Source: a virus. Taken from it: DNA of 47,736 nucleotides. The stretch lies in IMG/VR virus record IMGVR_UViG_3300045988_059397. One strand, written 5' to 3'. A program made the position numbers and the translations under genes. This document shows positions 1-47,736 of the stretch, in pieces (position 1 is the stretch's first letter; the number at the start of each line of letters is the position of its first letter). Below the pieces are notes generated by a model that was given only the letters and a program-made list of their open reading frames with translations, was not told the origin of the DNA and made no database searches.

Positions 1-119
1 CGACCACCACATGAAGCGAGCCATCGGCCTGTGACCCACGGGCCGCCGCCACGGCCAGCAGGACGCCCGCCAAGGCGGCCGGGCACGCGAGGGAAGCCAA
101 CACCCGCGCACAAAAAAGA
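1..119. repeat. Terminal direct repeat, copy 1 (identical to 47618..47736). Marks an assembly overlap of a circular or circularly permuted genome.
   Basis: Bases 1-119 (cgaccaccacatgaagcgagcc...cgcacaaaaaaga) recur verbatim as the last 119 bases. The repeat carries the 3' end of CDS 46998..47651 (stop codon at 32-34 = 47649-47651). Confidence 0.9.
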
Positions 120-3185: not shown

Positions 3186-4856
3186 GTGAGCACCATCAGC
3201 AGACGAAAGAACAGAAGCCGACCGCAGAGCGGCCGGCAGAGCCCCCGCCCCGTGAACAAGGGCTACGGCGACGCCGGCGCGAGCTGGCACAAGCGGTCGA
3301 CCAAGGGCTTCAGGGCCTTCAGTGGCAGCCCCAAGGAGGACATCGACGCCCACAACTGGACGCTCCGGCAGAGAGCCCGGATGCTCTACATGGCCGCACC
3401 CATCGCCACCTCGGCCATCCGCACCAACCGCACCAACGTGGTCGGCATCGGGCTCCAGCTCAAGAGCCGGATCGACCGGGAGGCGCTCGGCATGACACAG
3501 GAGGCCGCGGACGCATGGCAGGCGCAGGCCGAGCGCGAGTTCAACCTGTGGGCCAACAATAAAAGGGCGTGCGACGCCACCGGCGTCAATAACTTCGCAG
3601 CCATGCAGCAGCTCGCCCTCGCCTCGTGGCTGGTCAGCGGCGACGTGTTCGCAGTCGTCAAGCAGTACGACCCGACGCCCCTCATGCCATACTCGCTGCG
3701 CATCCACCTGATCGAGGCCGACCGCGTGGCAACCCCGACGAGCTCCGGCATCGTCACCCCCATGCTGCTGACCACCGGCAAGGCGGCCAACGGCAACACC
3801 ATCTTCGACGGCGTCGAGGTGGACGGCAACGGCCAGATCGCCGCCTACCACATCCGCAGCACCTACCCCTTCGAGCTGGGCACAGCGGCGACCAAGTGGG
3901 CCCGCGTGGAGGCATACGGCCGGCGCACAGGGCTCCCGAACATCCTGCACATCATGGAGAGCGAGCGCCCGGATCAGTACAGAGGCGTCAGCTACCTCGC
4001 GCAGGTCATCGAGCCCCTGCTCCAGCTCCGGCGCTACACCGAGAGCGAGCTGACCGCGGCCGTCGTGGAGAGCTTTTTCACGGCCTTCATTAAGACCGAG
4101 GCCGGCGCCGGCGACAACCCGTTCAACGAGGTGGGGAGCAGCCTGCCGGAAGTGAGCCGGGATCCCAACGAGTACGAGATGGGCCCGGGGCAGATCAACA
4201 TCATGGAGCCCGGCGAGGATGTCACCTTTGCCGACCCCAAGCGACCGGCCAGCGGCTTCGACAGCTTCCTGCGCGCCATCTGCGAGCAGGTGGGCGCAGC
4301 CCTCGAGATCCCGGCCGACCTGCTCCTCAAGGCGTTCAACAGCTCGTACAGCGCCAGCCGCGCCGCCCTGCTGGAGGCGTGGAAAGCCTTCCGCATGAGG
4401 CGCAAGTGGTTTGTCGATGACTTCTGCACCCCCATCTATGAGATCTTCATCGCCGAGGCCGTGGCCCGCGGACGCATCAGCGCCCCGGGCTTTTTCGCTG
4501 ACCCGGCAACCCGGGCGGCCTACCTCGGCGCCGAGTGGATCGGCCCCTCGCAGGGGCAGCTCGACCCGACTAAGGAGATCACGGCCGAGATCCTCGCCAT
4601 CGGCGAGGGCATCACCACCCGCGAGCAGGCCACGATCCGGCTCAACGGCGGCCAGTGGGACGCCAACATCGACCAGCTCGCCCGGGAAAACGAGAAGCTG
4701 CGGGCGGCTCAGGGAGACACCGGCAGCACCGGCGACTCCGGCGGCACATCAGTGGCCGGCGCATCCCTCTCGGCTGCCGTGCGGCGCGCTGCCATCGTCG
4801 CCGAGGTGGAAAAGACCATCAAGGAAGGAGACAAGGACAAGCATGAAAACGAGTAA
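3186..4856 (+). CDS. Portal protein (lambda gpB family)
   Basis: 556 aa ORF following gpW. Typical lambda-family portal length and position. The GTG start directly abuts GGAGG, so the exact start is uncertain. Confidence 0.8.
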   Translation: MSTISRRKNRSRPQSGRQSPRPVNKGYGDAGASWHKRSTKGFRAFSGSPKEDIDAHNWTLRQRARMLYMAAPIATSAIRTNRTNVVGIGLQLKSRIDREALGMTQEAADAWQAQAEREFNLWANNKRACDATGVNNFAAMQQLALASWLVSGDVFAVVKQYDPTPLMPYSLRIHLIEADRVATPTSSGIVTPMLLTTGKAANGNTIFDGVEVDGNGQIAAYHIRSTYPFELGTAATKWARVEAYGRRTGLPNILHIMESERPDQYRGVSYLAQVIEPLLQLRRYTESELTAAVVESFFTAFIKTEAGAGDNPFNEVGSSLPEVSRDPNEYEMGPGQINIMEPGEDVTFADPKRPASGFDSFLRAICEQVGAALEIPADLLLKAFNSSYSASRAALLEAWKAFRMRRKWFVDDFCTPIYEIFIAEAVARGRISAPGFFADPATRAAYLGAEWIGPSQGQLDPTKEITAEILAIGEGITTREQATIRLNGGQWDANIDQLARENEKLRAAQGDTGSTGDSGGTSVAGASLSAAVRRAAIVAEVEKTIKEGDKDKHENE

Positions 4857-6446: not shown

Positions 6447-7517
6447 ATGCCTTTTAACTTCTACGACACCCACACGCTGCTCATGGCCGTCCAGCAGCTC
6501 ATCCCTGCGACGACCTTCCTGCGTGACAGATACTTCCCGACCAACGACGCGACCGACATCTTCGCCACCGAGGATGTGCTGGTGGAGTACCGCGACGGCA
6601 CCCGCAAGCTCGCACCCTTCGTGGCCCCCCGCAAGGGAGGCGTCACCATCCTGCGCAAGGGCTACACCATGGAGCGTTATACCCCGCCCTTCGTGGCTCC
6701 CCGTCGCACCCTGACCCTCGACGAGCTGCGCAAGCGCGGCTTTGGTGAGGCCCTGTACTCTCAGCTCACCCCTGAGCAGCGCCAGCAGGTACTCATCATG
6801 CGTGACGCTGACGAGCTGGGCGACCTCATTACCAACCGTGAGGAGGCCATGGCCGCCGAGACCATGCTGACCAACGGCTGCATCATGAAGCACATCGCCG
6901 ACGACGCCGACAAGAGCGACGAGATGGAGATCCGCTTCTACTCCGAGGGCACCAACCCCGCCACCTACACCCCGACGATCAAGTGGGACGCAGAAGGCGC
7001 CAAGATCCGCGCCGACCTCGGCGCGATGGCCCGTATGCTGACCAGACGCGGCCTGCGTGCTGCTGACCTCGTGTGCTCCCCGGACGTGGCCGACGCCATC
7101 GTCGAGGATCCCGACATCAAGGAAATGCTCGACAACCGCCGCTACGAGCTGGGCTCTGTGGCCCCCGAGGAGCTGGCGCCGGGCGCTGCCATCATGGCCC
7201 GCCTGAACATCAACGGCCGCATCATCAGCGTGATCTCCTACGACGAGACCTACACCGACGACGACGGCAACGATCAGCTCTACATCCCGAGCGGCAAGTG
7301 CATACTCACCGCCCCTGCTGCTGGCCGTACCTGCTACGGCGCCGTCTCTCAGGTGGAGCAGGCCGACGGCGAGTTCCACACTTACGCCGGCCGCCGCGTG
7401 CCGAAATATGTGTCCAGCGCCGAGGGCAACACCCGCACGCTGACCATCTCCAGCCGCCCGCTGCTGATCCCTAACAACAAAAACCCGTGGATCGTTGCCG
7501 ACGTACTGGGGGAATAA
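6447..7517 (+). CDS. Major capsid protein (lambda gpE family)
   Basis: 356 aa. N-terminal 'FYDTHTLLMAVQQLIPATTFLRDRYFP' is typical of the capsid E family. Follows the decoration gene. Confidence 0.85.
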   Translation: MPFNFYDTHTLLMAVQQLIPATTFLRDRYFPTNDATDIFATEDVLVEYRDGTRKLAPFVAPRKGGVTILRKGYTMERYTPPFVAPRRTLTLDELRKRGFGEALYSQLTPEQRQQVLIMRDADELGDLITNREEAMAAETMLTNGCIMKHIADDADKSDEMEIRFYSEGTNPATYTPTIKWDAEGAKIRADLGAMARMLTRRGLRAADLVCSPDVADAIVEDPDIKEMLDNRRYELGSVAPEELAPGAAIMARLNINGRIISVISYDETYTDDDGNDQLYIPSGKCILTAPAAGRTCYGAVSQVEQADGEFHTYAGRRVPKYVSSAEGNTRTLTISSRPLLIPNNKNPWIVADVLGE

Positions 7518-7581: not shown

Positions 7582-7983
7582 GTGACAAACATGGCTTACA
7601 CACCTACCGAGTGGAAAGACGGCGACATCATCACCGCCGAAAGACTGAACAAGCTCGAGGCCGGCGTGCAAAACGAGCAGGTCGGGCCGCAAGGCCCCAA
7701 GGGAGACACCGGGGCAACCGGCCCCCAAGGCCCCAAGGGAGACACCGGAGAAACCGGCCCGCAGGGCCCCAAGGGGGACACCGGAGAAACTGGCCCGCGG
7801 GGCCCCGCCGGAGCGGACGGCGCCAAGGGCGATACCGGCGCAACCGGGCCCGCTGGAGCAGACGGGAAGTCTGTTAAGAGCATCACCCTCACCGCAGACG
7901 GCACCGGGAAAGTGACCGGCGGTACGGCCACGCTGACGGACGACTCCACCGTGCCGATCACCGTGACAACCGCCACCGCCTAA
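7582..7983 (+). CDS. Collagen-like (Gly-X-Y) repeat protein
   Basis: 133 aa with an uninterrupted G-X-Y run '[63 protein letters not shown]'. Confidence 0.85.
7684..7791 (+). repeat. Three tandem 36-bp units encoding [10 protein letters not shown](A/E)T
   Basis: Units at 7684-7719, 7720-7755 and 7756-7791 are near-identical at the DNA level. Confidence 0.85.
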
Positions 7984-19685: not shown

Positions 19686-20084
19686 ATGCAGGTCATCAGC
19701 GACGCCAAGGAGCTCGAGAAGCACACCTACATCAAGACGCGCAACCCGAACATCTTCCCCAAGAAGGAACGGCTCGGGCTGGCGCAACGGATGATGAACG
19801 AGGCCAGCGACCTCGTCGCCGACCTGATGGAAGCCAACGACCTGCTCCTGACAGACCCGCAGGAGCGGGAGCTGCGATACCGGGCGCAACGCTCGGCCCT
19901 GCGCAACTGCCGGAAACTGATCCACCACATCGAGCTCGCCCATGAGATCCTCAGCGGGCTCGGCGACGACGCCTTTGCACACTGGTCGCGGATGGCGGCC
20001 GGCGTCAAAAATCAGACCGCTAAATGGTACAAATCCGATAAAGAAAGGGCCGCCAAGATGGACGCGCAGGCGCGTCATCAATAG
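19686..20084 (+). CDS. avd: DGR accessory variability determinant (Avd-like four-helix-bundle protein)
   Basis: 132 aa, basic and all-helical. Lies immediately 5' of the template repeat and the RT, which is the position and size typical of Avd. Confidence 0.7.
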   Translation: MQVISDAKELEKHTYIKTRNPNIFPKKERLGLAQRMMNEASDLVADLMEANDLLLTDPQERELRYRAQRSALRNCRKLIHHIELAHEILSGLGDDAFAHWSRMAAGVKNQTAKWYKSDKERAAKMDAQARHQ

Positions 20085-20114: not shown

Positions 20115-20209
20115 TGCCGGGTCGGCCAACAACGCCCGCAACGTCAATTCCGACGGCACGCTGAACAGGAACAACGCCTACAACGGCAACAACGGCCTGC
20201 GCCCCGCTT
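20115..20209 (+). repeat. DGR template repeat (TR)
   Basis: 95 nt collinear with VR1 (22181-22275); its 3' 79 nt are collinear with VR2 (32323-32401). Contains 24 adenines, mostly as in-frame AAC x9, AAT and AGG. Ends in GC-rich GGCCTGCGCCCCGCTT. Confidence 0.9.
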
Positions 20210-20232: not shown

Positions 20233-20250
20233 CCGGCCGGAGACGGCCGG
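20233..20250 (+). ncRNA. GC hairpin in the TR-RT spacer (candidate structural element of the DGR RNA)
   Basis: CCGGCCGgagaCGGCCGG: 7-bp stem with a GAGA tetraloop, 24 nt after the TR end. Confidence 0.4.
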
Positions 20251-20403
20251 CGAACACTGCGCACCATCATCCAAGGAAGGCGTATCCCTCCCGCACCCGG
20301 CGCCGTATGACCGGCCCGGCCATGGGTAAACACAGGACTGCCGATGCTCCCGGCGGCGCACGCAAAGCGTGGCCGGAGCTGCCGACGGCAGAGATTTTTT
20401 CGC

Positions 20404-21666
20404 ATGGAGAACATCGTCAACAGCTTCAACTCGCTATACAAAGCATACCGCAAGACCCGCTGCGGGAAGCGGGACAACCCCACGGCCATGCGCTACCGCA
20501 TGGAGGCCATCGAGCGCACGGCCGACCTCTCTGACCGCCTCCAGCGGCGCGAGTACACCTTCGGGCCCTACTATCCCTTCAAGGTGTACGAGCCGAAGGA
20601 GCGGCTCGTCCTTGCCATAGACTTCGAGGGCAAAGTCGTCCAGCACTCGCTCTGCGACAACGTCCTCGAGCCCGTATTCTCCCGGCGCTTTATCCGGGAC
20701 AACTATGCGGGGCAGATCAGCAAAGGCACCCACGACGGCCTCGACCGTCTGGCCGGCGCCATGCGCCACTACTTTTTCAGCCGGAAGGCAGCAGACGATG
20801 AGGCCCGGCGGGCCGCCGGCCTGCCATACCGGCCGATGGAGGAGTGGGACTACGCCGAGGGCTGGGTGCTGAAAGGTGACTTTTCCAAGTTCTTTTACAC
20901 CCTGCTGCACGCCGTCTGCTTCGAGAAGGCCCGCAAGGCTCTGGCCTTCCTGTCTGACGAGGAGCTGATCGACTTCGTCGAGTGGCTGCTCTGGATCGTC
21001 ATCGACAGCACGCCAGACCCCGGGATCCCAATCGGCAACCAGTCGAGCCAACTGCTCGCCCTGCTCTATCTGGACGACTTCGACCACTGGCTGCGGGATG
21101 ACCTCGGCCTCGTCTATGGCCGTTACATGGACGACTTCTACATCATCAGCAGCGACAAGCTGCTGCTCCGGGAGATCCTCAAGCGGATCGAGGAGTACAT
21201 CAAGCCGCTGGGCCTGCGCCTGAACGGCAAGACGCAGATCTTCCCGCTCAAGAATGGCATCGACTTCCTCGGCTTCCACACCTACCTCACGAGCACCGGC
21301 AAGGTGGTCAGAAAGGTGAGGGCCAAGAGCATCGACAACATGAAGCGGAAGATCCGCAAGTTCCGCGGCCTCGTGGACAGGGGCAAGATGACGCTCGAGA
21401 GCGTGAGCCAATCCTACGCAAGCTGGACGGGCCACATCTCGCACGGCAACACCTACCACCTACGGCAGAACATGGACGCCTATTTCTTCGCATACTTCCC
21501 GGAGCTAAAACCTACCGAAAGGAGACAAGACTCATGCCTCAAACCCTTGGAAGCCTTGCCAACAAGGCAAAAATCAAGTTCGGCAGCCTCTACGGCGCGC
21601 CGATCATCTGGATCAAGGCCGACAAAAACCACGCCGGCTACCCCTCCAACAGCGTCACCCTCGTGA
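20404..21666 (+). CDS. DGR reverse transcriptase
   Basis: Starts at MENIVNSFNSLYKAY. Carries the DGR-specific 'IGNQSSQ' motif and the catalytic 'YMDD'. The 3' end overlaps the target gene by 133 nt. Confidence 0.9.
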   Translation: MENIVNSFNSLYKAYRKTRCGKRDNPTAMRYRMEAIERTADLSDRLQRREYTFGPYYPFKVYEPKERLVLAIDFEGKVVQHSLCDNVLEPVFSRRFIRDNYAGQISKGTHDGLDRLAGAMRHYFFSRKAADDEARRAAGLPYRPMEEWDYAEGWVLKGDFSKFFYTLLHAVCFEKARKALAFLSDEELIDFVEWLLWIVIDSTPDPGIPIGNQSSQLLALLYLDDFDHWLRDDLGLVYGRYMDDFYIISSDKLLLREILKRIEEYIKPLGLRLNGKTQIFPLKNGIDFLGFHTYLTSTGKVVRKVRAKSIDNMKRKIRKFRGLVDRGKMTLESVSQSYASWTGHISHGNTYHLRQNMDAYFFAYFPELKPTERRQDSCLKPLEALPTRQKSSSAASTARRSSGSRPTKTTPATPPTASPS

Positions 21667-23237
21667 CCAACCAGATCATCAAGCTGCTGTGCTTCGACGC
21701 GATGGAGCCGGCCAACGGCAACAGCGACCGCCGAAACTACGGCAATAACCGCTACATCTACTCCAACCTGCGCCAGTGGCTCAACAGCGACAAGGGCGCG
21801 GGCCAGTGGTACACCGCGCAGCACTCGGCGGATCAGGCTCCCGACTCGTCCCACGTCTGGAGCGGCTACAACCCCTACAACACCATCGCCGGCTTCCTCA
21901 ACGGCTTCACGGCCAACGAGCGGGCCGCCCTGCTCGCCACCACCATCACCGTCGGCAAGAGCTCCACGGACGGCGGCGGGACGGAGACCTGTGTGGACAA
22001 GGTTTTCCCCCTGTCCTGCACCGAGGTCAACCTCTCGGGCGACCATGTGTGCGGCAACAAGCTGGCGATATTCAGCGACAACTCCAGCCGCATCGCTACC
22101 GTCTCGGCCTCGGCCGCTGCCAACTCCAACTACGATGTCGACGCCAATCAGGCGTGGTACTACTGGCTGCGGGACGCCTATGCCGGGTCGGCCGTCAGCG
22201 CCCGCCGCGTCTTTTCCGACGGCACGCTGTACTGGGACCGCGCCTACGACGGCAGCTTCGGCCTGCGCCCCGCTTGTAATCTGTCCTCTGATCTCCTGGT
22301 CTCCGACACCACCGACTCGGACGGCTGCTACACAATCGTCTACAACCAGCCGCCCACGGCCCCCGGCACCATCACTGTCCCGAGCGAGGTCATCGGCGGC
22401 GAAAACCTGAGCATCTCGTGGGGACAGTCGACCGATCCCGACGGCAACCTCTCCGGCTACAAGCTGGAGCGCAAGGTGGACGACGGCACATGGGCGCAGA
22501 TTTACAGCGGCAGCTCCCGGAGCTACACCGACTCCATCACCTACGGATGGACGAGCGTGCAGTACCGCGTCAAGGCATACGACTCGGCCGGGGCCGAGAG
22601 CGCCTACACCACCAGCGCCGTGCGCACCGTCACCAACAACCGGCCGCCCGTCATCAGCGGCAGCGACACCGACCTCGGCAGCTTCACCACCACGCCGCCA
22701 TCCTACGAGTACACCGTCACCGACGCCGACGGCCATCAGGTCACGGTCGTGGAGAAGCTGGACACCACCACGCTGCGCACCTACACGGCCACCCTCGGCG
22801 ACACCAACGAGCTCGAGATCACGGCCGACCAGTGGCTCAAGCTGCTGAACGGCGACCACACCCTGACCATCACCGCCACCGACGCCAAGAACGAGAGCAC
22901 CGTGCGCACCCTGTCCTTCGACAAGGCCATGCACTCGGTCGAGTTCGAGCAGACCGTGGCGATGGCGGCCGACGATATGCCGACCAAGGCCCTCGTCAAT
23001 ATTCAGGGCAGCTTCCCGACCGGCAGCACCCTTCAGGTCTGGATCTGCAACAACGGCAACGACGCCGAGCCCACATGGGAGGACATCACCACCAAGGCCC
23101 TGACCAGCCAGAAGCACTTTTTCACCAACCAGACCAAGACCGCCGCAAGCTGGGGCGTGAAGATCAAGGTCAAGCTCCTGCGCGGCTCGGCCGAGGGCGA
23201 CTGCTACATCCAGTCGGTCGGCGGCAACTTCGCATAA
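21534..23237 (+). CDS. DGR target protein 1: N-terminal variable ligand-binding domain plus FN3/Ig-like domains (putative receptor-binding or tail-fibre protein)
   Basis: 567 aa with a strong RBS (AAAGGAGAC). VR1 encodes aa 217-248 ('AGSAVSARRVFSDGTLYWDRAYDGSFGLRPAC'). FN3-like 'PPTAPGTITVP...LSISWGQSTDPDGNLSGYKLERKVDDGTWAQIY' follows. Confidence 0.85.
   Translation: MPQTLGSLANKAKIKFGSLYGAPIIWIKADKNHAGYPSNSVTLVTNQIIKLLCFDAMEPANGNSDRRNYGNNRYIYSNLRQWLNSDKGAGQWYTAQHSADQAPDSSHVWSGYNPYNTIAGFLNGFTANERAALLATTITVGKSSTDGGGTETCVDKVFPLSCTEVNLSGDHVCGNKLAIFSDNSSRIATVSASAAANSNYDVDANQAWYYWLRDAYAGSAVSARRVFSDGTLYWDRAYDGSFGLRPACNLSSDLLVSDTTDSDGCYTIVYNQPPTAPGTITVPSEVIGGENLSISWGQSTDPDGNLSGYKLERKVDDGTWAQIYSGSSRSYTDSITYGWTSVQYRVKAYDSAGAESAYTTSAVRTVTNNRPPVISGSDTDLGSFTTTPPSYEYTVTDADGHQVTVVEKLDTTTLRTYTATLGDTNELEITADQWLKLLNGDHTLTITATDAKNESTVRTLSFDKAMHSVEFEQTVAMAADDMPTKALVNIQGSFPTGSTLQVWICNNGNDAEPTWEDITTKALTSQKHFFTNQTKTAASWGVKIKVKLLRGSAEGDCYIQSVGGNFA
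22181..22275 (+). repeat. DGR variable repeat 1 (VR1)
   Basis: 79/95 identical to the TR. All 16 mismatches lie at TR adenines: 20128, 29, 32, 40, 41, 46, 47, 64, 67, 70, 73, 74, 82, 89, 91, 92. Confidence 0.9.
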
Positions 23238-25217: not shown

Positions 25218-25415
25218 ATGAGCGAGAACAAAAAGCCCGCGCTGAATATGCGCTACTACAACGGAGAGATCGACGACGACCTTCCCTACACCGGCGTGCT
25301 CAACTACGACGAGGAGACCGGCCTGATCTACGACGAGGACGGCGATGTCGTGGATGAAAAGACCCTTGACGCCATGCTCGACGGTGACGGAAAGGGGGAT
25401 GACGAGGATGAGTAA
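25218..25415 (+). CDS. Small acidic hypothetical protein
   Basis: 65 aa. ATG 8 nt after AAAGGAGG. Asp/Glu-rich. Confidence 0.5.
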   Translation: MSENKKPALNMRYYNGEIDDDLPYTGVLNYDEETGLIYDEDGDVVDEKTLDAMLDGDGKGDDEDE

Positions 25416-26403
25416 CAGCACTCTGATCTCCTACACCAAGCTCAGCCCCAACCACTCGGGCAAGCGCACCAAAAAGATCGACACCATCACGATCCACTGT
25501 ATGGCCGGCCAGCTCTCCGTCGAGAGCTGCGGCGCTCTGTTTGCTAAGAGCAGCCGGCAGGCGTCCAGCAACTACGGCATCGGCCCCGACGGCCGCATCG
25601 CCCTCTATGTGGACGAGAGCAACCGCTCGTGGTGCACGTCGTCCAACGCCAACGACCAGCGTGCCGTCACCATCGAGGTCGCCAGCGACGCGACGCACCC
25701 CTACGCCGTCAGAGATAAGGCATACGACGCGCTGCTGGATCTCGTGACCGACATCTGCAAGCGCAACGGCATCAAGAAGCTCGTCTGGTCTACCAGCAAA
25801 AACAACCGCGTCGGCCACCTGAACGGCTGCAACATGACAGTGCACCGGGACTATGCGGCGAAAGCCTGCCCGGGCGACTACCTCTACAACCTGCAAGACG
25901 AGATCGCGGCCGAAGTCAACCGTCAGCTCGGCTCCGGCAGCAGCACACCCTCCACCGGGGGAACCACCGGCAGCGCCGCCGACATCAAGGTCGGCGACGT
26001 GGTGGAGTTTACCGGCTCCAAGCACTACGTCAGCGCCACGGCCACGAGCGCGTCGAGCTGCAAGCCCGGCAAGGCTAAGGTCACGGCCATCGCCAAGGGC
26101 AAGGCGCACCCCTACCACCTGATCGCCGTATCCGGCGGCGGCTCCACCGTGTACGGGTGGACGGACGCGGCAGACATCAAGACCAGCAGCAGCTCTACGG
26201 CCACCTCGTACCTCGTGAAGGTGACGACCGACGTGCTGAACATCCGCAAGGGCCCCGGCACCAACTACGGCACCAACGGGGACATCCGCGACAAGGGCGT
26301 CTACACCATCGTCGCCGAGAGCGACGGGCCCGGGGCCTCCAAGTGGGGCAAGCTCAAGAGCGGGGCCGGCTGGATCTCGCTGGACTACGCCAAGAAGGTC
26401 TAA
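25408..26403 (+). CDS. Endolysin: N-acetylmuramoyl-L-alanine amidase (amidase_2/PGRP-type) plus SH3-like cell-wall-binding repeats
   Basis: 331 aa. 'IDTITIHCMAG...SSNYGIGPDGRI...DQRAVTIEV...HRDYAAKACPG' are amidase_2 motifs. The C-terminal half has two SH3b-like segments ('LNIRKGPGTNYG...WGKL..GAGWISLDY'). Confidence 0.85.
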   Translation: MSNSTLISYTKLSPNHSGKRTKKIDTITIHCMAGQLSVESCGALFAKSSRQASSNYGIGPDGRIALYVDESNRSWCTSSNANDQRAVTIEVASDATHPYAVRDKAYDALLDLVTDICKRNGIKKLVWSTSKNNRVGHLNGCNMTVHRDYAAKACPGDYLYNLQDEIAAEVNRQLGSGSSTPSTGGTTGSAADIKVGDVVEFTGSKHYVSATATSASSCKPGKAKVTAIAKGKAHPYHLIAVSGGGSTVYGWTDAADIKTSSSSTATSYLVKVTTDVLNIRKGPGTNYGTNGDIRDKGVYTIVAESDGPGASKWGKLKSGAGWISLDYAKKV

Positions 26404-27837: not shown

Positions 27838-28887
27838 ATGGGGAAACACTTCAGCCACCTGACACCAACGCAGCGCACGCAGATCGACGCCTTCAGGCGC
27901 GCCGGCATGAAGGTCGTGGACATCGCCAAGGAGGTCGGCGTCCATTACACCACCATCTACCGGGAGCTCAAGCGGTGCACCTATGAACACCTGAACAGCG
28001 ACTACACGACCGAGATCCGATACAACCCCGACGGGGCGCAGGCTCGGTATGAGGCCAACCTGCGGGCGAAGGGCCCGGAGCTGAAGATCGGCAACGACTA
28101 CGAGCTCGCCGACTACCTGATCGGCAAGATCCGGGACGAGAAGTACAGCCCCGAGGCAGCCATCGGAGAGGCCGAGGTCTGCGGCTGGCCCTTCCGGGTG
28201 CATATCTGCGCGAGCACGGCCTACAACTACATCCGGGCCGAGATCTTCGGCGACGATCTCACCGTGGAAATGCTGCCGCAGCATGGCAAGCGCCGCCGGA
28301 AGCCCGAGCGGCCAGAGGGCAGCATCCCCCGCAAGCCGGCCGGCAAGAGCATAGAAAAGCGGCCGGAGATCGTCGACACGCGCACGACCTTCGGCCACTG
28401 GGAGATGGACAGCCTCGAGAGCGGCAAGGGCTTCAAGCGGACGTGGCTCATGCTGACCGAGCGCAAGACCCGCCGGGAGATCATCGTCCCCATGAAGGAC
28501 AAGACCAGCGAGAGCGTCGTCCGGGCCCTGAACGGCATCGAGCGGAAGCTGGGCGCCCTGTTCCCCCGGATCTTCGTGACCATCACCTGCGACAACGGCA
28601 CCGAGTTCGCAGACGCCGATGGCATCGAAAGCAAGCGCCGCGGGAAGGGCAAGCGCACGACCGTCTACTACTGCCACCCGTACACCCCGAGCGAGCGCGG
28701 CACCAATGAAAACCAAAACGGACTGATCCGGCGACTCGTCCCGAAGGGGACAGACCTCGCCACCCTCTCGCCCCAAGAGGTAAAGGCCGCCGAGGCATGG
28801 CTCAACAGCTACCCCCGCAAAATGTTCGGTTTTCTGTGCTCCGAGCAGCTTTTCAGGGAGGAGCTGGCCCTCATTCTGGCCCGCTGA
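27838..28887 (+). CDS. IS30-family DDE transposase/integrase
   Basis: 349 aa. N-terminal HTH 'LTPTQRTQIDAFRRAGMKVVDIAKEVGVHYTTIYRELKR'. DDE core with 'HWEMDS', 'TCDNGTEF' and 'YYCHPYTPSERGTNENQNGLIRR', typical of IS30. Confidence 0.85.
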   Translation: MGKHFSHLTPTQRTQIDAFRRAGMKVVDIAKEVGVHYTTIYRELKRCTYEHLNSDYTTEIRYNPDGAQARYEANLRAKGPELKIGNDYELADYLIGKIRDEKYSPEAAIGEAEVCGWPFRVHICASTAYNYIRAEIFGDDLTVEMLPQHGKRRRKPERPEGSIPRKPAGKSIEKRPEIVDTRTTFGHWEMDSLESGKGFKRTWLMLTERKTRREIIVPMKDKTSESVVRALNGIERKLGALFPRIFVTITCDNGTEFADADGIESKRRGKGKRTTVYYCHPYTPSERGTNENQNGLIRRLVPKGTDLATLSPQEVKAAEAWLNSYPRKMFGFLCSEQLFREELALILAR

Positions 28888-28918: not shown

Positions 28919-28947
28919 TTGACAAACGGCAACGCCCTCTGTATTAT
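28919..28947 (+). promoter_or_regulatory. Near-consensus sigma-70 promoter (TTGACA-17 nt-TATTAT)
   Basis: TTGACA at 28919-24 and TATTAT at 28942-47, in an AT-rich spacer after the transposase gene. Confidence 0.6.
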
Positions 28948-30900: not shown

Positions 30901-31730
30901 AAGAAATCGCCCGGGAGTACGCCAGCGAGATCCGCGACGGGATCGGCTGGGTAATCGTCTACCGCACCGGCCGCTCGTGGCACGCCCTGACCGTCTGGAG
31001 CGACCTCAGCAACAACGAGTGGGAGACCGACGACATCAACGACTCTCTCGAGGCCCTGCGCCTCGACCCCCGGGCCGTGGCCCTGAACGGCTACTACCTC
31101 GGCCACTTCGGCGACATGACCATCGAGGACATCGCCGCCGGCATCCGCTACCACTACGAGCGCGGCACCAACGCGCTCGCAGATGATGACATCCTCACAC
31201 AGGCCCGGGCCGACATCGAGGCGGCCCGGAAGCAGGCCGCCGAGGCCGGGCTTCCCTTCAGCGAGCGTCTGGTGGATGGCCCGGAGGACGAGCTCAACCC
31301 CTACATATACGACGGCAGCATGACCGCCGAGGACTACAACGCCATGCAGCAGGCCAGAGACACCCACGCCGCCCTCGTCGAGGTTGTGACCGACCACTAC
31401 CCAAACGCCGACGAGGAGGCCATCGAGCGCATCGCAGAGGCCGCCAGCAGCATGAAGCTCAGCCCGGAGGCCGTGCAGCGGATCCTCGACGCCTTCGACA
31501 GGATCACGGAAACCATCAAGGATCTCTGTGAGTGGGCCGCTCAGACCATCAGGACGCTCGCGGACTTCTTCACCGAGACGCTCGGCGACTTCATGCTGCG
31601 TCGGGCCCCGCCCAAGTGGCGCCACTACGCCCTCCACGCGAAGCGGGCCCGCGTCCGCAAGAAATACCGCAACCGCATCCGGCGGGCCTTCTTCGCTGCG
31701 CTGGCTTCGGAAGGGGGTGGAAGCTCGTGA
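30888..31730 (+). CDS. Hypothetical protein (acidic N-terminal region, basic C-terminus)
   Basis: 280 aa ORF with RBS GAGAGGAGG. Confidence 0.5.
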   Translation: MAALKEIAREYASEIRDGIGWVIVYRTGRSWHALTVWSDLSNNEWETDDINDSLEALRLDPRAVALNGYYLGHFGDMTIEDIAAGIRYHYERGTNALADDDILTQARADIEAARKQAAEAGLPFSERLVDGPEDELNPYIYDGSMTAEDYNAMQQARDTHAALVEVVTDHYPNADEEAIERIAEAASSMKLSPEAVQRILDAFDRITETIKDLCEWAAQTIRTLADFFTETLGDFMLRRAPPKWRHYALHAKRARVRKKYRNRIRRAFFAALASEGGGSS

Positions 31731-31906
31731 AGTTCAAGTGCGTCGGCTGCGGGCTTTACTGGAATGTGAGCGTATACCAGCAGATCCCCCGCGGCGGCTA
31801 CATCTGCCCGCATTGTGAGAGCCGGCTGCGCGCCGGCGAGACATTACCCAACCAGCGGCCCGGCCAGAACGACCGGCCGCAGACAACGAAAGGAGCAAAA
31901 CCATGA
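31727..31906 (+). CDS. Small zinc-ribbon protein
   Basis: 59 aa. GTGA start/stop overlap. 'CVGCG...CPHCE'. Confidence 0.4.
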   Translation: MKFKCVGCGLYWNVSVYQQIPRGGYICPHCESRLRAGETLPNQRPGQNDRPQTTKGAKP

Positions 31907-32601
31907 AGAAAGCCCTCAAGGCCGCCGCCCGCGGCACCATCTTCCCCTATGCTGGCGAGAAATGGGTCGCGCTGGAGCACGAAGCCAGCGGCCGCACCCT
32001 CTGTCTGCGCCTCGACCTGATCCCAAACAAGCCCTTTGACGAGAACAACTGCAACAACTTCGCAACCTCCAGCAGCAAAGAGTGGATGAACGGCCCCTAC
32101 CTCGACAACCTGATCGACGCCGTAAAGGGCCCGCACGCCTTCCTCACCACCGAGCTCGACCTGACGGCCGACGACGGCCTGAAGGACTACGGCACCTGCA
32201 CCGTCACCATCTTCTCGCTGACCGTTGACCAGTACCGGCGCAACCGCGATGTCATCCCCAACGCGGACGACTGGTGGTGGCTCTCTACCGCATACAGCAC
32301 CGAGGCCAATGGGTACGAGCATAGCGCCCGCAGCGTCTATTCCGACGGCACGCTGTACTGGGACGGCGCCTACCACGGCGACCGCGGCCTGCGCCCCGCT
32401 TGCTATCTGGACTCCGATCTCCTGATCTCCGTCGACAGCGAGGACACCGGCATCGGCCCGCAGGAGGCCGGCACCATCGTCGCGGAGCTGGTCGAGCAGT
32501 TCGGCGGCTCCTACGCCACCGGGGAGCAGTTCGCGGCCGAGGTCTCTTTCCTGCTCGGGAAGCTGCGGGCCATCCGGGAGAAGGAGGCGGCCCATGAGTA
32601 A
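31903..32601 (+). CDS. DGR target protein 2: stand-alone paralog of the variable domain of target 1
   Basis: 232 aa. VR2 encodes aa 141-167 ('SARSVYSDGTLYWDGAYHGDRGLRPAC'). Shares with target 1 the '(L/M)N(G/S)', 'FSL(T/S)' and 'WW(W)L' landmarks and the post-VR 'L(D/S)SDLL(I/V)S' motif. No obvious signal peptide. Confidence 0.8.
   Translation: MKKALKAAARGTIFPYAGEKWVALEHEASGRTLCLRLDLIPNKPFDENNCNNFATSSSKEWMNGPYLDNLIDAVKGPHAFLTTELDLTADDGLKDYGTCTVTIFSLTVDQYRRNRDVIPNADDWWWLSTAYSTEANGYEHSARSVYSDGTLYWDGAYHGDRGLRPACYLDSDLLISVDSEDTGIGPQEAGTIVAELVEQFGGSYATGEQFAAEVSFLLGKLRAIREKEAAHE
32323..32401 (+). repeat. DGR variable repeat 2 (VR2), remote from the RT
   Basis: 67/79 identical to TR 20131-20209. 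All 12 mismatches lie at TR adenines: 20132, 41, 46, 64, 67, 70, 73, 74, 82, 88, 91, 92. Confidence 0.9.
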
Positions 32602-33304
32602 CCTCTCCAGCCTGCTCGACCGCTACAAGGCCCTCGTCATTTTCGACACGGAGACCAGCGGCCTCAACCCGGGAGACAACCAGATCATCGAGCTCGCGGC
32701 GCTGCGTGTGGAGCGCACACAGACCGGGGCCCTGCGGATCGCTGGCAAGATGGACACCTTCATCAAGCTGCCAGAGGGTGAGAAGCTCCCCGAGAACATC
32801 GTCACCCTCACCGGGATCACCGACCGGCTGCTGGAGGCTGAGGGCGTGCAGAGTGGCACGGCCGTCAGCCGCTTCCTCAAGCTGGTCAAGCCCGGCCCTG
32901 TGCTGATGGTAGCCCACAACGCGCAGTTTGACGCTTGTTTTCTGCGGGAGCTGCTGCGGGGCTTCAATCCCGGGCACCTCGACTGGCTGGACAGCCTGAC
33001 GGTCTACAAAGACCGGCGCGCCTACCCTCACAAGCTCGCCAACGCGATCATCGCCTACGAGCTCGAGGACAAGGTGCAGAACAGCCACCGAGCCATCGAC
33101 GACGTGCTCGCCCTGTTCGAGGTGCTGAAGGCCATGGACGAGGAACGGGACGACCTCGGCAGCTATGTCAACCTGTTCGGCTATAACCCCAAGTACGGCG
33201 TCAGCGGCCGCCGGATCACCGGCGTGCGCTATGAGCCGCAGGGCTTCAACAAGAGCATCACGCGCCCCGAGCAGACGCTCCCGGCCCGGATGTCACGGAG
33301 GTGA
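32594..33304 (+). CDS. DnaQ-like DEDDh 3'-5' exonuclease
   Basis: 236 aa. ExoI 'VIFDTETSGL', ExoII 'MVAHNAQFDACFL', ExoIII 'HRAIDDVLA'. Confidence 0.8.
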   Translation: MSNLSSLLDRYKALVIFDTETSGLNPGDNQIIELAALRVERTQTGALRIAGKMDTFIKLPEGEKLPENIVTLTGITDRLLEAEGVQSGTAVSRFLKLVKPGPVLMVAHNAQFDACFLRELLRGFNPGHLDWLDSLTVYKDRRAYPHKLANAIIAYELEDKVQNSHRAIDDVLALFEVLKAMDEERDDLGSYVNLFGYNPKYGVSGRRITGVRYEPQGFNKSITRPEQTLPARMSRR

Positions 33305-33588: not shown

Positions 33589-34272
33589 ATGGAAGCAACA
33601 AAAGAAAGGGCCGCCCGACGCGACCGGGCGACCCCTGCGAGAACATCCGGCAGCTCGCCAGCGCACGGATCCCGCACCCAAAGTATAACACGCCGCCGGC
33701 GCCGTGCCAAGGCCCGGATCCGGCAGGCGGCCGTCCTTTTGACGGCTGCTGTCATCGTGGCCGGCATCGGCACAGTCATCTCGACCATCGCCGGAGGCCG
33801 TGAAAATACCACGGAGCTCCCGGAGCCGACCGCAGAGCAACCGGCGGTCGTCGTCACGACGCCCGCAGCGAGTACGCAGACGCCGGAGCCGTCCGAGGCA
33901 CTCGTCCGCTTCTACCTCAGCGCCAGTGAGCGCGACACCGTGGAGCGTGTCGTCATGGCCGAGTCTGGCGGCGAGAGCTTCGAGGGGCAAATGCTGGTCG
34001 CTCAGTGTATTCTCAACGCCGCCGAGAAGGAGGGCGTGCAGCCCTCTGAGGCCGTCGTGATTTACAGCTACACCAGCAACCGCCCCGACCCCACGCAGAG
34101 CGTCAAGGACGCCGTCGCGGCCGTATTTGACCGTGGCGAGGTCGCCATCGACGCCCCCGTCATGTACTTCTACAACCCCGCCCTCGTGACGAGCGACTGG
34201 CATGAGAGCCAGATCTTCGTCGCAGAGGTCGGCGGCCACCGCTTTTTCGCAGAAAGGAGCCCGGCAGCATGA
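33589..34272 (+). CDS. Membrane-anchored cell-wall hydrolase (SleB/Hydrolase_2-like)
   Basis: 227 aa. Basic N-terminus, TM 'AAVLLTAAVIVAGIGTVISTIAG', Pro/Thr linker. 'VERVVMAESGGESFEGQMLVAQCILNAA' is a SleB-type motif. Confidence 0.6.
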   Translation: MEATKERAARRDRATPARTSGSSPAHGSRTQSITRRRRRAKARIRQAAVLLTAAVIVAGIGTVISTIAGGRENTTELPEPTAEQPAVVVTTPAASTQTPEPSEALVRFYLSASERDTVERVVMAESGGESFEGQMLVAQCILNAAEKEGVQPSEAVVIYSYTSNRPDPTQSVKDAVAAVFDRGEVAIDAPVMYFYNPALVTSDWHESQIFVAEVGGHRFFAERSPAA

Positions 34273-35589: not shown

Positions 35590-36390
35590 ATGGCAACTGA
35601 GACCAAAAAGCCGGAGGCGGCCGCTGCTGCGGCCCCTCCCATCGAGGCCCGCTGTCTGACGCTCCGGCAGAAGCTCGTGGAAATGCGAAAAGCCTGCCCG
35701 GAGATCGTCAAGAAGAAGCACAGCGAAGGCGTCAAATACAAGTACGCCAAGATCTACGACGTGTGGGAGAAAATCACCCCCATCATGAACGAGCTCGGCG
35801 TCGACTTCGAGGTCATCGGCGAGAAGGCCACGCGCTACGCCGAGAACGGCGACCCGGTCTACTGGATCACCATGCAGACCAAGACCTACAACGGCGACAA
35901 GCTCATGTTCCTCTACGAGGCCGACCTGACGATCCGCTGGATCAACCTCGACAACGACGACGAGACGCTGGAGGCAGTCGTCCACGCCCTCGGCTGGAAC
36001 GACGACCCGGCCAAGGCCAAGGGGGCCGCCCACACCTATGCCCTGAAATACTACCTGTTCGAGAAGTTCAGCATCGACCAAGGTGAGGACGACCCCGACA
36101 ACAGCGACTTCGGCGCGCAGAGTAAAGGCCCCGGGGGCGGCTCTGGCGGCTCCAGACAGGGCCAGCAGCGTCAGGGGCAGGGCTCCGGCCGCCTGTCCGA
36201 GGCACAGCTCAGCCGCCTCTACAAGAAGGCAGAGGCCGCCGGCATGACCAAGGAGCGCACCATCGCCCGGATACTCGAGAAGTACAAGAAGCAGGATCCG
36301 GCCACCCTGACCCGGCAGGAGTACGACGAGATCTGCAACTCCCTCGACGCTGCTGCCGCGCAGCATAACCAGCAAGGAGGTCAAGGCTGA
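35590..36390 (+). CDS. ERF-family single-strand annealing protein
   Basis: 266 aa. 'GVKYKYAKIYDVWEKITPIMNELGV' and 'GAAHTYALKYYLFEKF' are ERF-like. Gly/Gln-rich linker. Confidence 0.6.
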   Translation: MATETKKPEAAAAAAPPIEARCLTLRQKLVEMRKACPEIVKKKHSEGVKYKYAKIYDVWEKITPIMNELGVDFEVIGEKATRYAENGDPVYWITMQTKTYNGDKLMFLYEADLTIRWINLDNDDETLEAVVHALGWNDDPAKAKGAAHTYALKYYLFEKFSIDQGEDDPDNSDFGAQSKGPGGGSGGSRQGQQRQGQGSGRLSEAQLSRLYKKAEAAGMTKERTIARILEKYKKQDPATLTRQEYDEICNSLDAAAAQHNQQGGQG

Positions 36391-46997: not shown

Positions 46998-47651
46998 ATG
47001 GCGGGCGGCAGCATATCCATCCAGATCGAAAACCTGCGGCAGCTCGTCGCAGACGTGCAGGCCATCGAGGCCGGCGGCCGCAAGTCCATCAGCAGCACTG
47101 TGAAGGACGTGAAGGCCCGGGCCCCCGGCTGGATAGCGCAGGAGGTCACGGCAGTCTACAACATCAAGAAGGGAGAGATCACGCCGTCCAGCGGAGGCAA
47201 GCCGAAGAAGATGGCGGGCAGCATCCGCATCACAGGCGAGACCATCGAGGAGCTCACCCTCGTCTACAAGGGCCGGCTCCTGACCCCTGTGCACTTCGGC
47301 ATGACACCCAAGGCCCCGCCGGCTGGCAGGAGCTACACCCTGAAGGCACAGATCCTCAAGGGCAGCAAGAAGGTCATCGGCCGCTACAAGAACACCCGCA
47401 CCAAGGGCGGGCCATACTCGCAGCGGTCTCACTGGATCCTCATGGGGACAGGCAACACCAAAGCCGACGGCACGAGCTGGATCCCATTCCAGCGCATGAG
47501 CAAGACCCGCACCGACATCCAGAAGATGACCACCATCTCGGTGCCGCAGATGATAACCAGCGACCGCACCAACGAGGCCATCATGCTGAGGCTCAACACC
47601 GAGACGGCCAAGCGCCTCGACCACCACATGAAGCGAGCCATCGGCCTGTGA
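46998..47651 (+). CDS. Minor tail / tail-completion protein (lambda gpZ-like)
   Basis: 217 aa. ATG 8 nt after GAAGGAGG. N-terminus 'ISIQIENLRQLVADVQAIEAGGRKSISSTVKDVKARAPGWIAQEV' parallels the gpZ-type organisation. The ORF is open from 46821, but that extension looks non-coding. Confidence 0.45.
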   Translation: MAGGSISIQIENLRQLVADVQAIEAGGRKSISSTVKDVKARAPGWIAQEVTAVYNIKKGEITPSSGGKPKKMAGSIRITGETIEELTLVYKGRLLTPVHFGMTPKAPPAGRSYTLKAQILKGSKKVIGRYKNTRTKGGPYSQRSHWILMGTGNTKADGTSWIPFQRMSKTRTDIQKMTTISVPQMITSDRTNEAIMLRLNTETAKRLDHHMKRAIGL

Positions 47652-47736
47652 CCCACGGGCCGCCGCCACGGCCAGCAGGACGCCCGCCAAGGCGGCCGGG
47701 CACGCGAGGGAAGCCAACACCCGCGCACAAAAAAGA
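47618..47736. repeat. Terminal direct repeat, copy 2 (identical to 1..119)
   Basis: Verbatim repeat of the first 119 bases. Confidence 0.9.

Follow-up and report, generated by a model that had tools for sequence, protein, structure and literature searches.

The window analyzed here, a 47,736-nucleotide stretch of viral DNA (IMG/VR record IMGVR_UViG_3300045988_059397), carries on its plus strand a 232-aa gene at positions 31903-32601 (ORF232, hereafter target2 or tgt2), whose product is a stand-alone protein of the DUF6273/C-type-lectin fold, extended at the C-terminus by a linker and two helices. The product matches Pfam DUF6273 (E = 1.2e-9) and, over its full length, phrog_9958 (E = 2.9e-68). 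As had been predicted from the sequence, the gene lies between a 59-aa zinc-ribbon ORF (31727-31906, plus strand; treble-clef zinc-finger matches, phrog_6107), which is also annotated as a 59-aa gene in a relative (L161), and a gene for a DEDD/DnaQ-like 3'-5' exonuclease (32594-33304, plus strand; RNase_T, E = 1.5e-21; NCBIfam PolC/DnaQ exonuclease-domain matches). The zinc-ribbon stop codon overlaps the tgt2 start codon (ATGA, 31903-31906), the exonuclease start overlaps the tgt2 end by 8 nt, and an AGGAG Shine-Dalgarno sequence stands 9 nt 5' of the tgt2 start codon.

An AF2 model of tgt2 has an overall pLDDT of 88, with 10-residue block means of 93-98 (residues 1-170) and 81 (residues 171-180); the helices at 186-200 and 207-231 have pLDDT values of 40-72. 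The lectin-like fold stands alone at residues 1-176, in agreement with the proposed stand-alone domain. Alignments with homologs of 30-45% identity, in which the C-terminal tail is not conserved, end near residue 180. The best Foldseek matches of the model were DUF6273 domains, and weaker ones were DUF1566 proteins and proteins named receptor-binding or tail-collar. Among PDB entries, Foldseek gave a single strong match, to the T. ramosa IgA peptidase (9qa6) at its N-terminal DUF6273 domain, and classical C-type lectins (CD94/NKG2A) scored weakly; the IgA-peptidase paper states no role for the DUF6273 domain of ThomasA. In agreement with the original prediction, which saw no obvious signal peptide, we found neither a hydrophobic N-terminus nor a transmembrane segment (maximal 19-residue Kyte-Doolittle mean, 0.54). 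Conserved cysteines, which would be a clue to extracellular location, were absent across the tgt2 family. Cys occurs at residue 157 in 16 of 80 sequences. PADLOC and NCBIfam searches returned no match for tgt2.

A DGR cassette and its first target

The window encodes one DGR, all on the plus strand. The gene for the accessory protein Avd (19686-20084; phrog_3206 'Avd protein of DGR', E = 9e-27) is followed by the template repeat (TR; 20115-20209), whose 24 adenines are mostly in AAC codons, and by the reverse transcriptase (RT) gene (20344-21666; RVT_1; phrog_1423, E = 6e-116). The RT has the motifs of the DGR clade (I/LGxxxSQ and YxDD) as IGNQSSQ (residue 230) and YMDD (residue 261), and an Avd is encoded next to the TR. 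An inverted repeat in the TR-RT spacer (20233-20250) forms a hairpin of 7 GC-rich base pairs with a GAGA loop, a possible DGR RNA element. It was the only clear local feature of the TR-spacer RNA, whose folding was not significant (z = -1.45).

Target1, at 21534-23237, is a tentaclin with an N-terminal DUF6273 domain (E = 3.6e-37) plus Ig/Fn3 domains, and it matches phrog_10993 ('Hoc-like head decoration') over its full length. Its variable repeat, VR1 (22181-22275), differs from TR 20115-20209 at 16 of 94 positions, all of them adenines in the TR. We also considered whether ORF232 is itself a tentaclin, and rejected this identity: it has no Ig/Fn3 domain, DUF6273 is its sole match, and it consists of one globular domain plus helices.

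VR2 is a remote copy of the TR that differs at adenines

The second variable repeat, VR2, lies within tgt2 at 32323-32401 (plus strand) and encodes residues 141-166, which in the AF2 model form a beta-hairpin (strands 141-145 and 151-155) plus the loop after it. The predicted match to the TR was reproduced in full: over 79 nt, VR2 and TR 20131-20209 have 12 mismatches, each at an adenine of the TR, and the reading frame of the repeat agrees with the AAC/AAT/AGG codons. The stretch has 22 adenines, so that the chance of 12 random mismatches all falling on A is about 1.5e-8. Non-A mismatches, named in the original prediction as evidence that would count against a DGR target, did not appear on realignment. 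VR2 is indeed remote from the cassette: the TR is 12.2 kb away, and 10.7 kb separate VR2 from the end of the RT gene. Just 5' of position 32323, 10 of 16 positions mismatch the TR, one of those 10 at an adenine. Because homology to the TR decays at this point, VR2 is 5'-truncated relative to VR1, as had been noted.

At its 3' end, the repeat closes with an A-free, GC-rich block of 16 nt, GGCCTGCGCCCCGCTT (32386-32401, plus strand), which is identical in TR, VR1 and VR2 and showed no variation in any copy found. The next 30 nt (32402-32431, plus strand) are identical to the VR1 flank (22276-22305) at 24 of 30 positions, whereas the flanks of VR1 and VR2 agree with the TR flank at only 6-7 of 30. 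Synonymous-site heterozygosity is about 0 at tgt2 codons 168-175, whereas the rest of the gene, apart from the TR-homogenized VR, has values of 0.10-0.28. The asymmetric 3' end of a DGR is thus present, with a common GC-rich block and then a VR-specific putative IMH that differs from the IMH* of the TR. Given its identity to the VR1 flank and its synonymous constraint, the segment at 32402-32431 is a candidate IMH or target-recognition element. An inverted-repeat search revealed no BPP-1-type GC hairpin or cruciform within about 100 nt 3' of VR2 or VR1; to our knowledge, such a downstream hairpin is not universal among DGRs.

VR2 is diversified across relatives

We surveyed the tgt2 family among 156 IMG/VR matches, from which 80 distinct contigs were retrieved; the closest IMG/VR relatives of the window's phage are 85-93% identical. 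Among 80 distinct homologs and 99 distinct VR2 sequences, variation in VR2 was limited to TR-A-templated codons. Residues templated by AAC carry 9-12 different amino acids, flanking residues are invariant, and the hypervariable positions are residues 144, 146, 147, 152-155, 157, 158, 160 and 161. Similarly, when 15 members were taken from each of two 90%-identity protein clusters (sizes 1544 and 290), VR columns held up to 8-9 residues and other columns at most 3. VR2 is hypervariable and not invariant, as a fossil repeat would be.

In the 14 genomes whose own TR is known, VR2 differs from that TR at 174 A sites and 10 non-A sites, 8 of the latter in two recombinant contigs. At non-A sites, VR2 follows the TR haplotype of its own genome in 12 of the 14, across at least five TR haplotypes. 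The other two (contigs 086723 and 051226) carry the TR variant of another lineage at these sites, which means that rewriting of VR2 after cassette recombination is not rapid. Synonymous heterozygosity is 0.02 at the non-A codons of VR2 and 0.28 immediately upstream, the pattern that repeated copying of the TR would produce. These two contigs, together with the 5' truncation, would fit a fossil duplicate of the VR1 domain that the DGR no longer rewrites. Tracking of the own TR, the 9-12 amino acids per templated position between invariant flanks, and the low synonymous heterozygosity contradict such a fossil, and we regard it as very improbable. A chimera assembled from mis-joined VR1 or TR reads, for which one could cite the 16-30 nt stretches common to the repeats and a contig (L035) whose VR2 has a VR1-type 3' flank, is excluded for practical purposes by recurrence in independent assemblies, since the gene with its own 5' and 3' context is found in 156 IMG/VR matches, in more than 1000 protein clusters of public data, in phage nd4 from GenBank, and in the genomes of bacterial isolates (Butyricicoccus pullicaecorum, Flavonifractor sp. 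and an Oscillospiraceae bacterium).

VR1 and VR2 of the window differ from each other at 8 positions, all at A sites, and have 7 identical substitutions in common, including TAC-TGG-GAC. The original prediction offered common descent by duplication as one source of the latter. Duplication is not needed, because the residues concerned are frequent in the population (W153, for example, occurs in 45 of 80 sequences). VR1 and VR2 from one genome are slightly more alike than chance, with a similarity above the between-genome level (n = 19, permutation p ~0.001; within-lineage test, p ~0.006-0.009). This similarity can equally be explained by VR1-VR2 gene conversion; L035 is either an instance of it or a chimeric assembly. 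Judged from the genomes compared, between-genome hypervariability and concerted evolution with the own TR show that diversification of VR2 is ongoing. Taken together, hypervariability and tracking of the own TR support the view that VR2 is a genuine remote second target of a single DGR, diversified independently of VR1.

A model for diversification of tgt2

We conclude, with a probability of about 93%, that VR2 is the variable repeat of the second, trans-acting target of a single phage DGR, an ortholog of tgt2 of the nd4-like gut myoviruses, and that the product is a small soluble DUF6273 lectin-fold protein encoded in an early operon. This conclusion builds on the demonstrated TR-VR2 relation, fold, and genomic context with its conservation. 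The nd4-like phages are temperate, with hosts among the Oscillospirales. In DGRs, an RT-Avd complex reverse-transcribes TR RNA with adenine-specific misincorporation, and the cDNA replaces the VR. By analogy, TR RNA of this phage would be converted by RT-Avd to adenine-mutated cDNA that replaces VR2. The invariant, GC-rich 3' end and the VR-specific 3' flank common to VR2 and VR1 would guide homing. In this way, about 11 positions of the surface beta-hairpin and loop (residues 141-166) would be continually re-randomized, and this independently of VR1.

Small DGR targets lie in early regions in the contexts examined

The neighborhood of tgt2 reads LPD15, zinc ribbon, tgt2, RNase_T, Gam, ERF, SSB, DnaC-like protein and RecU; a cell-wall hydrolase is also encoded in the early region of the window (33589-34272). 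A sigma-70-like promoter, TTGACA-17-TATTAT (28919-28947, plus strand; a consensus match only), is the candidate early promoter of this operon, and no strong plus-strand terminator was found between it and position 36000. The gene order and the neighboring recombination and replication genes bear out the original placement of tgt2 inside an early/replication operon. From gene order and consensus promoter and terminator scans, tgt2 is apparently co-transcribed with that operon and would be expressed early.

This position is conserved and recurs for small DUF6273 DGR targets of several Clostridia phage genera that are not related to one another. The 10 independent contexts examined come from at least five phage groups, and in all of them the small target lies in an early/DNA-metabolism region and never among tail genes; comparable positions were seen in L161, L202, L206, L207, L208, L209, Brigit, Toutatis/Lelie and nd12. 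In FP_Brigit, about 41 kb separate the VR of gp06 from the TR, and gp06 is the third gene behind a promoter with a 12/12 consensus match, next to the immunity region; its product also has a C-terminal acidic linker plus helix. In L202 and L208, the small target lies downstream of divergent repressor genes. The Brigit description consulted does not mention the VR of gp06, and the nd4 paper (PMC10743442), from which the words 'replication', 'early' and 'exonuclease' are absent, leaves the module position of tgt2 unmentioned. The early-operon position of small DGR targets is a comparative pattern that the literature we found on them does not discuss. Position alone shows neither the timing of expression nor the absence of tgt2 from the virion.

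Possible functions of the tgt2 product

We lean slightly toward a soluble, early-made binder outside the virion over a virion-attached, Mtd-like receptor binder. Such a non-virion binder, intracellular or released on lysis, could serve counter-defense, superinfection exclusion or receptor masking, and we give it somewhat less than even odds. The idea is kept alive by the conserved early-operon position. It also accords with the overlap of tgt2 with both neighbors in the window, the location of Brigit gp06 near the immunity region and of the L202 and L208 targets behind divergent repressors, the lack of a signal peptide or transmembrane segment, and cysteines that are not conserved in the family. 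Intracellular DGR-diversified C-lec sensors are described in bacteria (PMC10907252). Against this, tgt2 has no effector or partner domain and no match to defense-system models, and the order of genes does not amount to expression data. The hydrolase at 33589-34272 also weighs on this side, because an early region that encodes a cell-wall enzyme is not purely intracellular in function. In addition, Tyr-to-Cys changes are frequent in the VR, and the stabilizing disulfide proposed for them would fit an extracellular protein (PMC10743442).

Baykov et al. suggested, as a guess, that nd4_tgt2 is an Mtd-like receptor binder (PMC10743442). A tgt2 encoded outside the structural module would then be attached to the virion, with its C-terminal helices docking to the tail or to tentaclin, which we consider plausible but the less probable of the two. 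Tgt2 has the C-lec fold and the TR in common with the virion adhesin tentaclin (PMC10743442), it has the weaker structural matches to proteins named receptor-binding or tail-collar, and a common ligand would fit the within-genome similarity of VR1 and VR2. The acidic linker and helix recur in Brigit gp06, but confidence in the modeled C-terminal tail of tgt2 is low, and homologs of 30-45% identity do not conserve it. Gene conversion, of which L035 may be an example, can equally account for the VR similarity, and all 10 contexts place the small target in early/DNA-metabolism regions, never with tail genes. Tgt2 also has neither an N-terminal attachment or trimerization module nor a tail-module position next to the DGR.

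Extending the non-virion alternative to the whole class is more doubtful: the small stand-alone DUF6273 DGR targets might be a conserved class of hypervariable binders in Clostridia phages, expressed early and possibly in lysogens, that act outside the virion, in the infected cell or on release, perhaps by neutralizing variable host defense or surface-exclusion factors or by masking receptors.

Taken alone, the window contributes a further member to a family of two-target phage DGRs that has already been published. The added value is the comparative pattern of a small lectin-fold target in an early recombination/replication operon in at least five phage groups. If expression and function correspond to this position, diversification by phage DGRs extends beyond receptor-binding virion proteins. 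If tgt2 acts outside the virion, a single template would serve a DGR-diversified non-structural protein paired with a DGR-diversified virion adhesin. Whether the position has this meaning can be tested directly in the cultivable lysogens that are available (Butyricicoccus pullicaecorum DSM 23266, and Faecalibacterium strains with Brigit, Toutatis or Lelie).

Comparison with known systems

The original prediction held that a diversified early-expressed, possibly intracellular binder would be a new use of DGRs. The element itself is not new: DGRs with these two targets were reported in 2023 from phages closely related to that of the window. On sequence and synteny, the VR2 gene is an ortholog of the published target2/nd4_tgt2 of phage nd4 (Baykov et al. 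2023, Int J Mol Sci 24:17324; PMC10743442), described as a stand-alone C-type-lectin/DUF6273 protein in which a surface beta-hairpin carries the VR. nd4_tgt2 (GenBank OR777945, WRQ08026.1) is 68% identical to the window's tgt2 over the full length and fully syntenic, with a zinc ribbon upstream, an exonuclease downstream, and an Avd-TR-RT-tentaclin cassette about 10-12 kb away. Both phages have a DUF6273-only target with short C-terminal helices and a VR2 that is shorter than VR1 and hypervariable across relatives; a single DUF6273 domain, a VR hairpin and tentaclin as first target place ORF232 in the nd4_tgt2 family. The two are sister lineages with distinct TR haplotypes, ..AATTCCGAC.. in the window and ..AACACCGAT.. 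in nd4.

Mtd of Bordetella phage BPP-1 resembles tgt2 in its C-type-lectin fold, C-terminal VR, A-specific diversification and IMH-type 3' asymmetry. Mtd has 381 aa and is trimeric on tail fibers, and its gene lies directly next to avd-TR-brt in the tail module. Mtd is anchored by an N-terminal beta-prism and beta-sandwich, both of which ORF232 lacks, and its VR is a loop where that of nd4_tgt2 is a hairpin (PMC10743442). We found no sequence-level match of ORF232 to Mtd.

Toutatisvirus, a different phage genus, has a remote small DUF6273-only target similar to that of the window (FP_Toutatis gp24/Lelie orf58; Egorov et al. bioRxiv 10.1101/2024.10.15.618418; PMC11792537). This core gene is 31% identical to tgt2, carries a second VR at the C-terminus of the domain, 17.5 kb from the TR, and is likewise accompanied by a Hoc-like/tentaclin target that adjoins the RT. 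It lies among methyltransferase, replication-initiator and antiterminator genes, and its immediate neighbors differ from those in the window. The analogous remote small DUF6273 target is reported for Lelie/CP11, and no read-level VR variation was seen in Lelie cultures (PMC11792537).

Finally, prophages in Clostridia MAGs (L187-L198) have cassettes of the form [small DUF6273 target(s)]-Avd-TR-RT, with targets 25-38% and RTs 39-43% identical to those of the window. Two tandem target genes are present in 9 of 10 loci, and A-only C-terminal VRs (7-14 A-site mismatches) occur in all 10, in both tandem copies in 8. Unlike in the window, these targets adjoin the RT in cis and no tentaclin was seen next to the RT; in L188, the whole cassette lies between an SSB gene and a terminase gene.

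A new member of a two-target DGR system

The closest GenBank record to the window, phage nd4 (OR777945), shows full synteny with it and encodes a protein 68% identical to tgt2, the 232-aa DUF6273 protein of ORF 31903-32601. Exactly this two-target system of a diversity-generating retroelement (DGR) was described for nd4 by Baykov et al. 2023 (PMC10743442). We take the window tgt2 to be a new member of that described system, with a probability of about 0.93.

An exact 119-nt direct repeat occupies the two ends of the window (1-119 and 47618-47736; 47,736 bp, 64.4% GC), indicating a complete phage genome, circular or terminally redundant, of ~47.6 kb (about 47,617 bp). The + strand carries every major gene, beginning with a block for terminase, head, sheath, tail and baseplate. 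The DGR that comes after it consists of Avd (19686-20084), the template repeat (TR, 20115-20209), a reverse transcriptase (RT, 20344-21666) with the hallmark IGNQSSQ and YMDD motifs, and a 567-aa DUF6273 and Ig-domain protein (tentaclin, 21534-23237). A CBM_5_12 protein and an amidase endolysin (25345-26403) are encoded after tentaclin; 3' of the latter lie a strong terminator (26475) and then a minus-strand TM2 gene. A promoter-like site (28919-28947) lies 5' of a long + strand operon encoding, in order, LPD15, a 59-aa zinc ribbon, tgt2, a DEDD exonuclease, a SleB-like hydrolase, Mu Gam, ERF, SSB, a DnaC-like loader, RecU and methyltransferases.

Three further features of the genome were noted. 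An IS30-family DDE recombinase/transposase (27838-28887; NCBIfam, 222 bits) keeps its genomic position in nd12 as well as in relatives, a prophage/host junction is seen beside its homologue at one relative's locus (L161), and it is probably the phage's integrase. The hydrolase of the early replication operon (33589-34272) is a SleB/Hydrolase_2-type cell-wall enzyme; the early region of phage Toutatis encodes a 3D-domain protein. A 133-aa ORF (7582-7983), just downstream of a 356-aa ORF of capsid-protein size (6447-7517), encodes a collagen-like G-X-Y tract at 7683-7867 that repeats every 36 nt.

VR2 is diversified from the template repeat

Over 79 positions, TR 20131-20209 and the variable repeat of tgt2 (VR2, 32323-32401) show 12 mismatches, each at a TR adenine (hypergeometric chance ~1.5e-8), and realignment gave no non-A mismatch. 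VR1 (22181-22275), the repeat inside tentaclin, differs from the TR at 16 of 94 positions, every one an A. The two VRs differ from each other at 8 positions, all A sites, and have 7 substitutions in common. Homology to the TR is lost upstream of 32323, where 10 of 16 positions mismatch, mostly at non-A sites, and VR2 is therefore 5'-truncated. The ORF overlaps both neighbouring genes and has an AGGAG ribosome-binding site; neither a signal peptide nor a TM segment was found in its protein. The original prediction had described the A-only mismatches, the VR1/VR2 counts, the truncation and the missing signal peptide, and each was reproduced here.

An IMG/VR scan yielded 156 relatives, and 80 loci were examined. 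Among 80 distinct homologues, residues 144, 146, 147, 152-155, 157, 158, 160 and 161 were hypervariable, most with 9-12 amino acids each and entropy up to 3.3 bits, while A142, R143, V145, G149, A156, G159 and G162-C167 were invariant. Nucleotide variation in 99 distinct VR2 sequences fell at the TR-A sites and in a short block where the TRs of the lineages are themselves unlike; at least five TR haplotypes exist (e.g. ..AATTCCGACGGCACGCT.., ..AGGAACGATGGCACGCT.., ..AACACCGATGGCACTCT..). At non-A positions VR2 carried its own genome's TR haplotype in 12 of the 14 genomes with TR, VR1 and VR2 all known. In the exceptions, contigs 086723 (L021/L082) and 051226 (L094), the VRs depart from their own TR at non-A sites and match another lineage's haplotype; these look like recombinant DGR cassettes with targets not yet re-homed. 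Mismatches totalled 174 at A sites versus 10 at non-A sites for VR2, and 200 versus 9 for VR1. Synonymous heterozygosity was 0.02 at non-A codons in VR2 versus 0.28 just upstream, as expected if the TR repeatedly overwrites them. In two 90%-identity protein clusters (sizes 1544 and 290; 15 members examined per cluster), the number of residues per column reached 8-9 within the VR and no more than 3 elsewhere. Judged from these sequence comparisons, VR2 is an active DGR target. A fossil VR2, invariant among relatives, is contradicted by this hypervariability and by its tracking of its own genome's TR.

At another locus (L035 3427-3551, IMGVR_UViG_3300014955_000038), VR2 has a VR2-type 5' flank and a VR1-type 3' flank (GTAATCTGTCCTCT), and the TR is only ~4 kb downstream; this reflects either an assembly chimera or gene conversion from VR1 to VR2 accompanied by rearrangement.

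Candidate recognition elements

Adenine is absent from the final 16 nt of the repeat (GGCCTGCGCCCCGCTT), which TR, VR1 and VR2 share unchanged. In the next 30 nt, VR1 and VR2 are identical at 24 of 30 positions, versus 6-7 of 30 with the TR; the 60 nt 5' of the two VRs match at 18 positions. Codons 168-175 of tgt2 show almost no synonymous variation among lineages 65-93% identical in protein. This VR-specific 3' flank has the features expected of an IMH-type target-recognition element, and we infer that role for it. A BPP-1-type hairpin was looked for 3' of VR1 and VR2 and found after neither. The TR-RT spacer contains a perfect GC hairpin (20233-20250) with a 7-bp stem and a GAGA loop; nd4 keeps it with small changes, and it may belong to the DGR RNA.

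Structure of tgt2

The sole Pfam match of tgt2 was DUF6273, over its C-terminal half; its PHROGs match, the uncharacterised phrog_9958, spans the whole protein. An AlphaFold2 model (alignment of 71 diverse homologues) reached pLDDT 88; over residues 1-170 the means of 10-residue blocks were 93-98, and the block 171-180 averaged 81. VR2 maps to strands 141-145 and 151-155 and the loop after them; residues 177-232, an acidic linker and two helices, were modelled with low confidence. The best PDB match was the DUF6273 N-terminal domain of Thomasclavelia ramosa IgA peptidase (9qa6, E 8e-8), and C-type lectins scored weakly. A viral structure library returned DUF6273 proteins and, more weakly, DUF1566, receptor-binding and tail-collar proteins.

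Genomic position of the small target

The words "replication", "early" and "exonuclease" are absent from Baykov et al. (PMC10743442), and because gene position is undiscussed there, we surveyed contexts. Close relatives, including prophages of Butyricicoccus pullicaecorum DSM 23266, a Flavonifractor sp. and an Oscillospiraceae isolate, retained the order LPD15, zinc ribbon, tgt2, exonuclease, hydrolase, Gam, ERF, SSB. In the Butyricicoccus prophage (L162 10692-11400), the exonuclease 3' of tgt2 matches as two overlapping pieces, suggesting a frameshift, and ~1.7 kb is inserted ahead of the hydrolase gene.

Among homologues at 34-46% identity, those in L202 and L206 have a divergent repressor upstream and an adjoining RNase_T exonuclease, the L207 gene has methylases and a VRR_NUC nuclease around it, the L208 gene follows an HTH_3/ImmA pair and is surrounded by methylases and RecU, and the L209 gene follows a PAPS-reductase-like gene. 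In phages Toutatis and Lelie, the gene is amid methyltransferase, prohibitin, replication-initiator and antiterminator genes. FP_Brigit gp06 (NC_047909.1 3948-4559; L203/L205), a 203-aa small DUF6273 protein of the early operon, is the third gene after a promoter that matches the consensus at 12/12 positions and adjoins the immunity region, and just precedes two exonucleases and RecT. Its 56-nt VR (4390-4445) has 6 mismatches, all adenines, to a TR ~41 kb away; the original Brigit description mentions the Hoc-like target alone. In ten more distant Clostridia MAG prophage loci (L187-L198), Avd-TR-RT is directly preceded by small DUF6273 genes: nine loci have two in tandem and L187 has one. A-only VRs occur in all ten, in both tandem copies of eight. 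The cassette lies between SSB and terminase in L188; in some of these loci it is beside SSB, between replication genes and terminase.

None of the contexts surveyed had a small target amid tail genes. The placement of tgt2 inside an early/replication module, as originally predicted, is genuine; it is conserved in the surveyed relatives and undiscussed in the published accounts cited here.

Virion or non-virion binder

Given the identification of tgt2 (0.93), on which both readings are conditional, a non-virion early binder is a real possibility, a little short of an even chance: the early-operon position is conserved, and the protein has neither an attachment module nor an export signal. Defence-system models gave no match to tgt2. 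A virion-attached receptor binder is more doubtful, though still a serious contender. It would fit the fold and template that tgt2 has in common with tentaclin, and the likeness of VR1 and VR2 within a genome: A-site identity averaged 8.5/18 within versus 7.0/18 between genomes in a small sample of 19, mostly metagenome assemblies (window, L001, L004-L006, L011, L013, L014, L018, L021, L023, L035, L065, L070, L078, L080, L097, L126 and contig 004194; permutation p ~0.001, within-lineage p ~0.006-0.009), with shared states frequently clustered in unbroken blocks. Only occasional coincidences were reported by Baykov et al. (PMC10743442). The excess could equally arise from occasional VR1-VR2 gene conversion; the L035 VR2 has a VR1-type flank. 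On present evidence the early-module placement is a lead, not yet a new use of the DGR system, and is worth an experiment.

Comparison with published systems

In nd4 (PMC10743442), target1 is "tentaclin", with a C-lec domain and Ig domains, and nd4_tgt2 (target2) is a 234-aa protein with a DUF6273-only C-lec domain between short helices and a surface hairpin that bears the VR. VR2, with 21 mutable adenines, is the shorter of the two repeats; both targets occur in 39 of 54 nd4-like genomes, and an Mtd-like action was proposed for tgt2. The original prediction had raised the prospect of a new use of the DGR; tgt2 belongs to a described system, and the headline novelty claim therefore fails. Analogues are also published: Egorov et al. 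(bioRxiv 2024) described a remote VR in a core DUF6273 gene of Toutatisvirus, 17.5 kb from the TR, and "small DGR target proteins" with DUF6273 were reported for the Faecalibacterium prophages Lelie, in which read-level variation was not seen, and CP11 (PMC11792537).
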